A stretch of DNA of 21,234 bases, taken from a virus (Duplodnaviria; Heunggongvirae; Uroviricota; Caudoviricetes). Shown one piece after another: positions 4,556 to 5,614 of this stretch. Position 1 is the stretch's first letter. The number at the start of each line of letters is the position of its first letter. The translations under genes and the position numbers were made by a program. Under the pieces are notes generated by a model. It saw nothing but the letters and a program-made list of their open reading frames with translations, searched no databases and was not told the origin of the DNA. The DNA lies in IMG/VR virus record IMGVR_UViG_2537562190_000017; one strand, given 5' to 3'.

Positions 4556-5614
4556 TCATCCGTTCTGACTGACTAAATCCTGTACTTCCCTGACCGTCTG
4601 CTCAAAACGTTCAGTCTCCAGCTCAACGCCAGTTGCACGACGCCCCAGCGCCATCGCGGCTTTGACTGTCGAACCCGACCCCATGAAGAAATCTGCAACC
4701 AGGTCACCCGGACGACTGCTCGCACTGATTATCTGCTGCAGCATTTCTGCCGGTTTTTCGCACGGATGTTTCCCGGGATAGTACTGCACCGGTTTATGCG
4801 TCCACACATCCGTGTACGGCACCTGCGCCGTCACGCCAAAATACCGCCGCAGATGCTTATATTCACTCTGTAGTTCCGCATACTGCCGGTTCAGTGAAGT
4901 ATACGTCTCCAGCAGCTGGTGGTGGGGCTTCTCCAGTTCACCCCGCTGATGCTTCTCTTCTGCCACCCGGGCAAACAGCGCCTGTAATTTCAGATAATCG
5001 CTTTCGTTCGGTAGCTGCCACTGACTGGCACTGAACCAGTGCGACACCATGTTTTTCTTTCCTGTGGCATCCACTATCTGTTTTGCCGTTATCCCCAGGG
5101 CAGCACGCGCATCACGAAAGTAAGAAATCAGCGGAGCCATCACATGCTGTTTCAGTGCCCTGCCCTTCGCCTCATACCCGGCATCTTTCGGACGATACGG
5201 CCCCTGATAATGTTCCGCGAACAGAATGCGCTCGGTGGCCGGAAAATACGCCCGCAGGCTTTCCTTGTTACACCCGTTCCAGCGTCCGGACGGCTTTGCC
5301 CAGATGATATGGTTCAGTACGTTAAACCGCTCACGCATCATTATTTCGATGTCAGATGCCAGGCGATGGCCACAGAACAGGTAAAGACTTCCGGCAGGTT
5401 TCAGCACCCGCCAGAACTGCGCAAGACACTGCTCCAGCCACTTCAGGTAATCTTCATCACCCGCCCACTGGTTATCCCAGCCCTCGGGTTTCACTTTGAA
5501 GTACGGCGGGTCCGTGACTATCAGGTCAACAGAATTTTCGGGTAACGACCGCATAAATTCCAGGCAGTCGGCGTTGATTAACTCATAACTGGATATTCTT
5601 ACAGTATTAAGCAT
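4556..5614 (-). CDS. Orphan DNA methyltransferase, beta-class amino-MTase (N6-adenine or N4-cytosine)
   Basis: 352 aa; motif IV DPPY near the N-terminus (LIVTDPPYF) and an AdoMet-binding FxGxG-type motif near the C-terminus (DFFMGSGST). The order IV then I indicates the beta class. No restriction endonuclease gene is adjacent. Confidence 0.85.
   Translation of the reverse strand: MLNTVRISSYELINADCLEFMRSLPENSVDLIVTDPPYFKVKPEGWDNQWAGDEDYLKWLEQCLAQFWRVLKPAGSLYLFCGHRLASDIEIMMRERFNVLNHIIWAKPSGRWNGCNKESLRAYFPATERILFAEHYQGPYRPKDAGYEAKGRALKQHVMAPLISYFRDARAALGITAKQIVDATGKKNMVSHWFSASQWQLPNESDYLKLQALFARVAEEKHQRGELEKPHHQLLETYTSLNRQYAELQSEYKHLRRYFGVTAQVPYTDVWTHKPVQYYPGKHPCEKPAEMLQQIISASSRPGDLVADFFMGSGSTVKAAMALGRRATGVELETERFEQTVREVQDLVSQNG

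Follow-up and report, generated by a model that had tools for sequence, protein, structure and literature searches.

A solitary M.EcoGII-family methyltransferase gene in a prophage late operon, with a conserved structured element across its start codon

Here, we propose that the gene at 4556..5614 on the minus strand of the window (the whole 21,234-nucleotide stretch of DNA that was analysed) encodes a solitary late-operon prophage methyltransferase of the M.EcoGII family, which would place N6-methyladenine in any sequence context and so shield progeny DNA. We put the probability of this reading at about 0.8. The integrity of the gene, its family membership by sequence, the gene order, the terminators, the absence of an endonuclease and the prevalence of the gene are all observed directly. 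For non-specific activity, toxicity when the enzyme is made constitutively and silence in the lysogen, we draw on papers describing enzymes that are 92-95% identical to it.

An intact member of the M.EcoGII family

The open reading frame (ORF) encodes 352 amino acids from ATG to stop codon. Its product matches the Pfam family N6_N4_Mtase (PF01555; E=9e-45, 153.7 bits), well above the curated cut-off of 26.7 bits, with residues 29-340 aligned to profile positions 1-219 of 221, and the PADLOC model MTase_II matches it at 1e-161. Motif IV (DPPY; residues 35-38, nt 5512-5501, minus strand) is N-terminal to motif I (FMGSG, of the form FxGxG; residues 310-314, nt 4687-4673, minus strand), and the target-recognition region lies between them. 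This is the order of beta-class N6A/N4C methyltransferases, just as the original prediction had read it; an alpha-class, Dam-like assignment was rejected, since it needs FxGxG before DPPY. Degeneracy of these catalytic motifs had been raised as a possible objection, and the alignment with seven relatives speaks against it, both motifs being invariant. Identity is 0.82 at the first codon position and 0.86 at the second against 0.45 at the third, which indicates clear purifying selection. The gene is carried by 1911 of 5426 complete E. coli genomes, and the exact protein is present in public E. coli records, with identical copies on 31 contigs.

When aligned over its full length with M.EcoGII (as machine-read from the sequence printed in the supplement of PMC11551740), the protein is identical at 321 of 349 positions (92%), with 2 gaps; as 3 of the mismatches are scanning errors in the printed text, the true substitutions number about 25. 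The corresponding gene of phage 1720a-02, whose methyltransferase was named as "very similar" in the M.EcoGII paper (PMC5778455), is 96.1% identical to the window gene in nucleotides. Judged by sequence, the methyltransferase is an intact, ordinary M.EcoGII-family member and hence an enzyme of an already-known type. The first report of M.EcoGI and M.EcoGII was reportedly the methylome study of Fang et al. in 2012. The family was cloned in 2012, characterised in 2018, made into a commercial reagent and re-engineered in 2024.

When cloned, M.EcoGI and M.EcoGII methylate all adenines in any context, and their constitutive production slows growth; in the native lysogen both are silent and leave no methylation (PMC5778455). 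From these tested relatives, together with the reconstructed ancestors discussed below, we infer that the window allele would also methylate adenine non-specifically. The original prediction had advised a search for the modified motif in a methylome. Such a search would probably yield none, because the M.EcoGII family methylates adenine in any context. A test of the cloning type, which had also been suggested, has already been done on the 92% identical M.EcoGII (PMC5778455).

Setting in the late operon

As the original prediction had it, the gene lies between Q with its terminator and the nanS-p and lysis genes, all on the same strand. The antiterminator Q gene (6175..6870, minus strand; 231 aa; PF06323, E=4.8e-84) finds no match among solved structures, which sets it apart from both lambda Q and Q21. 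Several Q families are represented among the 33 of 47 species-level loci in which a Q homologue precedes the methyltransferase. A candidate late promoter pR' (6163..6191, minus strand; TTGCAA, 17 nt, TATGTT) was picked out by eye only and has 8/12 matches, under the 9/12 threshold of our promoter scan. It is followed by a tR'-like terminator (6086..6106, minus strand; CCGCC-GCCA-GGCGG and seven T residues), which a terminator scan placed at 6106-6093, 69 nt past the Q stop codon. In E. coli strain 48 both arms of its stem have changed in concert (CCACC/GGTGG), so that pairing is preserved, and homology to a phage with a different Q starts at the terminator. There is also a weak isrK-like Rfam match across 6086-6165 (17 bits, E=0.3). 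A second intrinsic-terminator-like hairpin (GCCTTCAG-TCCT-CTGAAGGC and a T-run; 5751..5778, minus strand), identified from the sequence and by the terminator scan, whose hit spans 5778-5761, overlaps the stop codon of a 65-aa ORF, which bears out the earlier statement that a terminator separates that ORF from the methyltransferase. At the equivalent place, loci without the small ORF have another terminator-like hairpin with a T-run, unrelated in sequence.

Downstream of the methyltransferase is an STnc100-family prophage sRNA (4276..4476, minus strand; RF02076, 148.1 bits, gathering score 47, full-length match to positions 1-206), which ends in a terminator at 4309-4286; neither AgvB nor AsxR anti-sRNA was matched beside the plus-strand terminator at 4247-4268. 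The next late gene encodes a nanS-p-type sialate O-acetylesterase (2106..4052, minus strand; DUF1737, SASA and DUF6645 by Pfam), and a lysozyme gene lies at 674..1207 (minus strand). The prophage in the window also bears an IS insertion at 9312-10406. The order Q, terminator, small ORF, methyltransferase and lysis genes is annotated in SfV, mEp460, phiNP and the Hafnia phage yong2.

The enzyme was right to be called an orphan. Re-inspection of the neighbours (Q, the winged-helix ORF, the sRNA and the esterase) with Pfam and PADLOC found no restriction endonuclease, and no PADLOC model was matched by any of them or by the antisense ORF at 5039..5545. A type II restriction-modification system was therefore rejected, there being no adjacent cognate endonuclease.

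The statement that the gene occupies the position where Stx phages carry stx was imprecise. Phages of the Stx2a, 2c and 2d types carry the same methyltransferase gene (84-96% nucleotide identity), as the suggested comparison at this locus brought out, and after it come tRNAs and stxAB. In a blastn comparison with Stx2_95, window positions 3900-4509 correspond to L001 2715-3336 and positions 4543-4700 to L001 4988-5145, and the 1.65-kb tRNA-stx cassette of the Stx phage (three tRNAs and stx2AB in Stx2 phages) maps onto an empty cargo junction of 33 nt in the window (4510..4542), which has no tRNA genes. The methyltransferase is thus the fixed gene directly upstream of a variable cargo slot, which Shiga-toxin phages fill with tRNAs and stx. 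An empty junction is the minority state, with 7 of 69 viral contigs in a slot census having at most 200 nt and no tRNA.

The original prediction also gave the gene a promoter of its own, which our results do not favour: no minus-strand sigma-70-like promoter at 9/12 or better was found in 3900-6400, by a scan that is insensitive since it also missed the expected late promoter, and in the lysogen no methylation by M.EcoGI or M.EcoGII is seen (PMC5778455). By sequence, the two terminators upstream and the lack of a consensus promoter agree with such silence. The late promoter has been described as constitutive but terminated in lysogens, with moron insertions downstream of it tolerated (PMC7547250, PMC4104026). 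We suggest that in the lysogen, late-promoter transcripts would end at the terminator just past Q, with the second terminator before the gene, and the enzyme would not be made. On induction, Q-modified RNA polymerase would pass both terminators, and the methyltransferase gene would be transcribed along with nanS-p and the lysis genes. Replicating phage DNA would then be methylated by the enzyme regardless of motif, so that progeny genomes would be shielded in the next host from many restriction systems sensitive to adenine methylation. The structured element that spans the start codon may add translational control. The dependence on Q, the protection of virion DNA and the control by the element are the deduced parts of this scheme. 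Protection of progeny DNA from restriction, which the original prediction had put forward, is the likely purpose and is also what the authors who characterised M.EcoGII proposed (PMC5778455). Counting against it, a plasmid heavily methylated by M.EcoGII has a transformation efficiency in E. coli that is lower by 4-5 orders of magnitude (PMC5778455), so full methylation might harm the phage.

A conserved element over the start codon, and the small ORF beside it

A conserved structured element (5570..5750), recognised from alignments and from pair counts against controls, covers the start of the methyltransferase gene. Its core of about 136 nt (5615-5750) lies 5' of the ATG, and the constraint runs about 45 nt into the coding sequence, to about position 5570, with third-position conservation of 0.87 in codons 1-15. 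At 0.80, nucleotide identity in the element compares with 0.45 at the third codon positions of the gene; the element is conserved like non-synonymous positions. Independent hits to the element numbered 112, and the methyltransferase followed it in every one. Compensatory base changes are present (pair counts against controls) and point to an RNA structure rather than an operator. Rfam 15 gave no match to the minus strand at E up to 10, and on the plus strand only P26, at 22.1 bits under a gathering score of 36.

The element would be either a sense leader of the methyltransferase mRNA or a plus-strand cis-antisense RNA; its predicted helix P1 pairs 5740-5736 with 5666-5662. By wobble-pair statistics the antisense strand is the better candidate, a hint that the toxic enzyme may be held under an antisense lock. 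In that version, a plus-strand cis-antisense RNA with a three-way junction would block translation of the methyltransferase in the lysogen until Q-driven late transcription overwhelms it, and by analogy would resemble a type I antitoxin. A plus-strand promoter candidate for such an RNA (TTAACT, 16 nt, TACAGT; 8/12) is weak and was found by eye, and its conservation is partly due to conserved amino acids. In a less exotic version, a sense-strand leader may switch between two folds, hiding or exposing a start site that has no Shine-Dalgarno sequence. An RNAalifold consensus for the sense strand has a different fold that shows next to no covariation, with a covariation term of -0.64 kcal/mol and 3 compensated pairs, and was kept only as a possible alternative sense conformer. 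A tentative pseudoknot between the P3 loop and the region before the ATG is paired in 92.5% of cells and lost in the two most divergent sequences. Two other candidates were set aside: a leader peptide (MGGWWVL) is disfavoured, having no Shine-Dalgarno sequence and a frame and length that vary with indels, and the Pas sRNAs lie elsewhere according to a preprint, PasD upstream of the esterase gene and PasA and PasC between the esterase and holin genes. That the element is an undescribed riboregulator dedicated to M.EcoGII-family genes is a possibility we take seriously, while thinking the odds are against it.

The 65-aa winged-helix (TrmB-like) ORF (5765..5962, minus strand; PHROG 331, E=1.8e-37) had been suggested as a controller of the methyltransferase. 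Its exact protein is found on at least 999 public contigs, and 10 of 12 substitutions among three homologues are synonymous, an excess which places it under purifying selection. A longer reading of 106 aa (5765..6085) was rejected, since its extension is put out of frame by an indel in Stx2_95 and RefSeq annotates the 65-aa form. The suggestion could be extended to a dedicated, C-protein-like controller that binds the element as DNA, and such a role would suit an ORF that is conserved, lies some 150 nt ahead of the methyltransferase gene in 96 of 104 viral contigs and is present in every phage record inspected, even at about 50% identity. However, a terminator separates the two genes, the compensatory changes in the element suggest RNA structure, and about 14 of about 46 species-level loci have the terminator, the conserved element and the methyltransferase without the small ORF. 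Nor is the protein of the right kind: Pfam gives no Xre-type (HTH_3) match, and the TrmB match is weak (E=0.0039, 17.4 bits, cut-off 25.6, for the 106-aa reading). The ORF is real and usually linked to the methyltransferase but dispensable, and we consider a C-protein-like role for it unlikely.

What the enzyme acts upon

Might RNA be the relevant substrate, instead of DNA or besides it? The enzyme would then place m6A on host or phage RNAs late in infection and alter their translation or stability. In vitro, M.EcoGII does methylate single-stranded RNA and both strands of RNA:DNA hybrids (PMC5778455, PMC11551740), but its activity on RNA is well below that on DNA (about 30% against about 90% of adenines; PMC11551740). 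In addition, no in vivo role on RNA has been reported, and the broad association with phages that have to cross restriction barriers suits a role on DNA. We therefore think it improbable that RNA is the relevant substrate.

Even lower in our estimation is an orphan enzyme with sequence specificity, as the original prediction had assumed, whose mark on a defined motif would serve to regulate host or phage genes epigenetically or to counter one particular restriction system. The NCBI protein name, site-specific DNA-methyltransferase, favours such an enzyme, as does the fact that most solved beta-class relatives are site-specific. Many of the approximately 25 substitutions relative to M.EcoGII also fall in the central region (residues ~130-280), which is thought to contact DNA; the best match among solved structures is only 1e-24 (8urk/9c3u), so there is no M.EcoGII structure for comparison. 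Against this, non-specific activity is shared by two natural relatives (92-95% identity) and by the two reconstructed ancestors, Anc291 and SUPREM, while the nearest site-specific relative, M.PflMI, falls outside the M.EcoGII clade (PMC11551740). Native lysogens with homologues of the methyltransferase also show no extra methylated motif (PMC6602927). That the gene has no function, as a passenger or as a remnant decaying within a defective prophage, is hardly credible, despite the IS insertion and the 120 of 157 phage matches that span less than 80% of the gene (many Stx2a phage records keep only part of it), given the full-length frame, invariant motifs, strong purifying selection and identical protein on 31 contigs.

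Significance

In light of the gene encoding an M.EcoGII-family methyltransferase, what is new here? The original prediction had presented the gene as a possible novelty, which does not hold, as its enzyme family is known, named and commercially used; being one more copy, it has little weight as a discovery. Only the element across the start codon may be new. The database label "site-specific" is probably an error that would lead methylome studies astray. Wherever this toxic, motif-free methyltransferase occurs, a terminator of its own and a strongly conserved structured element seem to accompany it, which is potentially a new observation. Should the element be a riboregulator, it would account for the way in which prophages silence a dangerous enzyme, and would represent a new RNA family present in a third of E. 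coli genomes.

Comparison with known systems

The closest known enzymes are M.EcoGII (EGT69837.1) and M.EcoGI from prophages of O104:H4 C227-11, which share with the window protein a length of 349-352 aa, the beta-class motif order, a single domain, a prophage location and the lack of an endonuclease partner. Compared with M.EcoGII, the window protein has about 25 real differences and a C-terminus longer by three residues. Orthologues annotated as "DNA methylase" (84-96% identical in nucleotides or 71-87% in amino acids) occupy the same late-operon place, after Q, a terminator and the small ORF, in Stx2a, 2c and 2d phages, phiP27 (Stx2e), SfV (orf48), mEp460 (gp53), phage cdtI and 1720a-02. 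The Stx phages differ in having three tRNAs and stxAB between the methyltransferase and the STnc100-type sRNA.

Phage Dam-type enzymes (M.EcoVT2Dam, T4 Dam) are likewise phage-encoded solitary adenine methyltransferases thought to oppose host restriction. Those enzymes belong to the alpha class, with FxGxG before DPPY, and recognise GATC; their genes in Stx phages occupy the early region. In the window methyltransferase, by contrast, the motifs come in the opposite order, the gene belongs to the late operon, and the enzyme is, by homology, probably non-specific.

Finally, cis-antisense locks such as hok/sok and SymR/symE, and C-protein control, silence a toxic product through a regulator at the 5' end of its gene, and the window locus may be likened to them by analogy. 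The element overlaps the start codon, as do cis-antisense RNAs of the hok/sok and SymR/symE type. Unlike those systems, the putative RNA has no Rfam family and no C-protein homologue beside it.

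The methyltransferase and its family

The methyltransferase ORF runs from ATG to stop over 352 codons (4556..5614, minus strand), and its product matches Pfam PF01555 (N6_N4_Mtase; E=9e-45, well over the curated cut-off). Residues 35-38 are DPPY and residues 310-314 are F-M-G-S-G, so that motif IV lies N-terminal to motif I, as in the beta class; an alignment with seven relatives shows both catalytic motifs to be invariant. The original prediction of a beta-class amino-methyltransferase with intact motifs is thus borne out, as is its orphan status: neither the neighbours nor any antisense ORF gave a match to a model of a restriction endonuclease or other defence system. 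As a description of the sequence (gene order, motifs, absent endonuclease), that prediction was correct.

Aligned end to end with M.EcoGII, a characterised non-specific adenine methyltransferase of an E. coli prophage, the protein is identical at 321/349 positions (92%). The reference was machine-read from the text of the supplement to PMC11551740, and three apparent differences (NHHIW, TKVP-QYY, and GRRRA) are scanning errors, since the natural relatives all match the window there. Phage 1720a-02, named in the M.EcoGII characterisation paper as the carrier of a very similar enzyme (PMC5778455), has a gene with 96.1% nucleotide identity to that of the window. Mean identity to 43 diverged orthologues is 0.82, 0.86, and 0.45 at codon positions 1, 2, and 3, and purifying selection acts on the window's allele. 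Judged on sequence, the methyltransferase belongs to the M.EcoGII family, with all the sequence-level defining features that were tested present.

Cloned M.EcoGI and M.EcoGII methylate adenine whatever the context, reaching 85-99% of DNA adenines; M.EcoGII accepts single-stranded DNA and RNA as well, cells with constitutive expression grow more slowly, and the native lysogen methylome bears no trace of either enzyme (PMC5778455). Reconstructed ancestors of the clade are still non-site-specific, and the nearest site-specific enzyme, M.PflMI, is placed outside it (PMC11551740). The methylome and expression experiments first proposed for finding a modified motif have in effect already been done on near-identical enzymes, with no motif as the outcome, and we infer non-specific activity for the window's own allele. 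The NCBI family name is ‘site-specific DNA-methyltransferase’, yet the characterised members are non-specific.

The exact protein occurs on 31 contigs in public E. coli records and belongs to a 90%-identity cluster of 5,932 members. With at least 80% of the query covered, the gene is present in 1,911 of 5,426 complete E. coli genomes, in up to 7 places per genome, and it is also found in Stx2a, Stx2c, and Stx2d phages and in phiP27. Annotated orthologues exist in SfV, mEp460, Citrobacter phage phiNP, and Hafnia phage yong2, and an unannotated Klebsiella phage record has a tblastn match at the same position. Taking one genome per species, there are 48 loci across Enterobacterales, from Escherichia albertii to Erwinia, Pantoea, and Rosenbergiella. 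Near-identical enterobacterial prophage DNA also appears in contigs L090, L097, L103, L110, L116, and L135, under the labels Collinsella, Bacillus, Vagococcus, Chryseobacterium, Geobacteraceae, and ‘Proteobacteria’. In L116, an E. coli-type methyltransferase and tRNAs give way abruptly to a high-GC EF-Tu region, which looks like a chimeric contig or contamination, not real host range.

Locus organisation and the cargo slot

The window is a lambdoid prophage in reverse orientation, and the anatomy around the methyltransferase is now cleaner than in the earlier annotation. On the minus strand, RusA (6861..7220) and the antiterminator Q (6175..6870) are followed by a hairpin with T7 (6106-6093), a 65-aa ORF (5765..5962), a second hairpin with a T-run (5778-5761), the methyltransferase, an STnc100-family sRNA gene (4276-4476; full-length, 148 bits against a gathering score of 47) with a terminator at its end (4309-4286), a nanS-p-type esterase (2106..4052), and then DUF826 and lysozyme. 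No tRNA was found in the window. An STnc100-family sRNA likewise flanks the stx cassette of the Stx2a phage Stx2_95, and E. coli strain 48 has two copies (L002 3280-3490 and 3770-3976). A strong plus-strand terminator (4247-4268; GCCCGCG-TCTCCCAG-CGCGGGC followed by T7) is convergent with that of STnc100, a layout described for convergent prophage anti-sRNAs; beside it, neither AgvB, AsxR, nor any other Rfam family matched at gathering score. Compared with E. coli strain 48, the hok/sok locus carries, shortly before the hok start codon, a 1,095-bp insertion (9312-10406; flanks overlapping by 6 bp) encoding a 348-aa rve-family transposase (9369..10415); the insertion adjoins an intact sok RNA (10401-10568, minus strand, 100.8 bits).

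The methyltransferase had been described as lying where Stx phages carry stx. In Stx2_95, the annotated order is Q, a 65-aa hypothetical protein, DNA methylase, three tRNAs, stx2A, stx2B, and nanS-p, so that the orthologous gene precedes the tRNAs and stx2AB. By blastn, window 4543-4700 corresponds to the 3' end of the Stx2_95 methylase gene and window 3900-4509 to the stretch from just past stx2B into nanS-p; hence all that stands in the window for the 1.65-kb tRNA-stx cassette is a 33-nt junction (4510-4542). The late-region context was right, but the gene does not sit in the stx slot, as Stx2_95 has both the methyltransferase and a stx cassette downstream of it. Rather, the methyltransferase is a fixed neighbour upstream of a cargo slot and does not itself fill it. 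Among 69 viral contigs with both flanks present, the slot is at most 200 nt without tRNA (the window type) in 7, about 400-500 nt with 2-3 tRNAs in 32, 1-2.5 kb with 2-3 tRNAs and no stx in 23, about 1.4 kb with neither tRNA nor stx in 1, and filled by tRNAs and stx in 6. The census agrees with an earlier account in which morons insert beyond the antiterminated late promoter, at a site with sRNA genes on its flanks (PMC4104026). The slot of E. coli strain 48, which follows the orthologue and tRNAs, contains another ‘SAM-dependent DNA methyltransferase’ gene unrelated to the first (L002 4077-4763).

Expression signals and the 65-aa ORF

Gene order suggests that the methyltransferase is Q-dependent, a Q homologue (from one of several families) lying upstream in 33 of 47 species-level loci. 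A candidate late promoter (TTGCAA, 17 nt, TATGTT; 6191-6163) has 8/12 matches, by eye only. The presumed short late-promoter transcript has a weak isrK-like Rfam match over 6086-6165 (17 bits, E=0.3), and the hairpin at 6106-6093 behaves as its terminator. This terminator after Q (6086-6106, minus strand, with equivalents in Stx2_95 and E. coli strain 48) is a mosaic boundary between different Q modules: homology of the window with a phage having an unrelated Q starts exactly at the hairpin, and E. coli strain 48 retains the stem by a compensatory change from CCGCC/GGCGG to CCACC/GGTGG (G:C to A:U). The additional promoter once attributed to the methyltransferase itself is not supported, given that an (insensitive) promoter scan found no consensus promoter ahead of the gene and that M.EcoGI and M.EcoGII are reported to be silent in lysogens.

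The 65-aa ORF is, from its substitution pattern and matches, a real gene: 10 of 12 substitutions among three homologues are synonymous, and it matches PHROG 331 (function unassigned there) with E=1.8e-37. A 106-aa reading was rejected, its frame being broken by an indel in Stx2_95. The likeness to a TrmB-type winged helix is weak, and the public name ‘TrmB family transcriptional regulator’ has a correspondingly weak basis. The ORF lies about 150 nt upstream of the methyltransferase in 96 of 104 viral contigs and precedes it in every phage record inspected, even at about 50% identity. About 14 of some 46 species-level loci have other ORFs in its place while keeping the terminator, the conserved element described below, and the methyltransferase, which makes it a frequent companion and not an obligatory controller.

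A conserved element over the start codon

The spacer from the second terminator to the methyltransferase ATG is of near-fixed length (147-154 nt), and its last ~136 nt (5615-5750) are conserved from Escherichia to Hafnia, with a mean identity to the window (0.80) on a level with codon position 1 of the methyltransferase and far above the 0.45 of position 3. The constraint runs on into the coding sequence (5570-5750 in all), third-position conservation being 0.87 in codons 1-15, compared to 0.41-0.70 in the remaining 15-codon windows. Covariance-model searches locate one copy at each locus, in every case immediately 5' of the methyltransferase, and no copy at the few homologues whose upstream DNA is unrelated. 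In viral contigs, a 19-base pattern for the element had 112 usable matches, all 112 with the methyltransferase downstream and 111 with it at +128 to +131. The element is strictly tied to M.EcoGII-family genes. Against Rfam 15, its minus strand had no match at E up to 10 and its plus strand only a sub-threshold one (P26, 22.1 bits).

From an alignment of 60 distinct sequences (62 after model-based realignment), we propose that the element folds as a three-way junction (P1 around P2 and P3) followed by hairpins P4 and P5. Over the 62 sequences, 84.8% of cells are paired in the proposed structure, 28-44% when partners are slid by 1-3 columns, and a mean of 83.3% when partners are shuffled; pairs with changes on both sides number 11, against 3-6 when slid and a mean of 5.8 when shuffled (0/500 reaching 11). 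One P3 pair is C:G in 26 sequences, U:A in 20, A:U in 11, and U:G in 4, and is unpaired in none, and a lone G-to-A change in P1 is paired with C-to-U in its partner. Such compensatory changes are supportive of the junction rather than conclusive, as the sequences are related and the structure was derived from them.

Which strand carries the element can be judged from wobble pairs, changes between Watson-Crick pairs being uninformative. Read in the sense direction, A·C/C·A makes up 8.2% of cells and G·U 1.7%; on the opposite strand these values swap, raising overall pairing to 91.3% and that of P3 from 75% to 98.9%, with every P3 variant becoming a purine transition facing a fixed U. With RNAalifold, the antisense alignment scores -32.3 kcal/mol and the three-way junction is recovered; the sense alignment scores -22.7 kcal/mol. 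These statistics favour the antisense strand, and the element may be a cis-antisense RNA over the start codon, made from the window plus strand. Its sole visible promoter candidate (TTAACT, 16 nt, TACAGT; plus strand) is weak, however, and lies inside codons 4-13, the same stretch as the frozen synonymous sites. Also counting against an antisense RNA, inner P2 has G·U pairs on the sense strand, which can in addition form an alternative long hairpin dependent on G·U pairs, and in the minimum-energy fold of the window's own sense strand (-57 kcal/mol, z=-3.2) that hairpin is formed and the AUG region is paired. The element may instead be a sense leader whose two alternative folds control a start site without a Shine-Dalgarno.

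Two smaller features accompany the element. A hairpin over codons 4-9 (5585-5602, minus strand; ACUGU, 8-nt A-rich loop, ACAGU) retains 4-5 bp across lineages and overlaps the frozen synonymous sites. A mini-ORF (ATG GGC GGC TGG TGG ..., MGGWW...; 5724-5744, minus strand) starts inside P1/P2, has no Shine-Dalgarno before it, and varies from 6 to >30 codons between lineages.

Comparison with known systems

Of the items here, only the conserved element at the start codon may merit follow-up; as a finding, the methyltransferase is already known and ordinary. It differs from Dam-type enzymes, from restriction-modification systems, of which it is not one half, and from C-protein-controlled genes.
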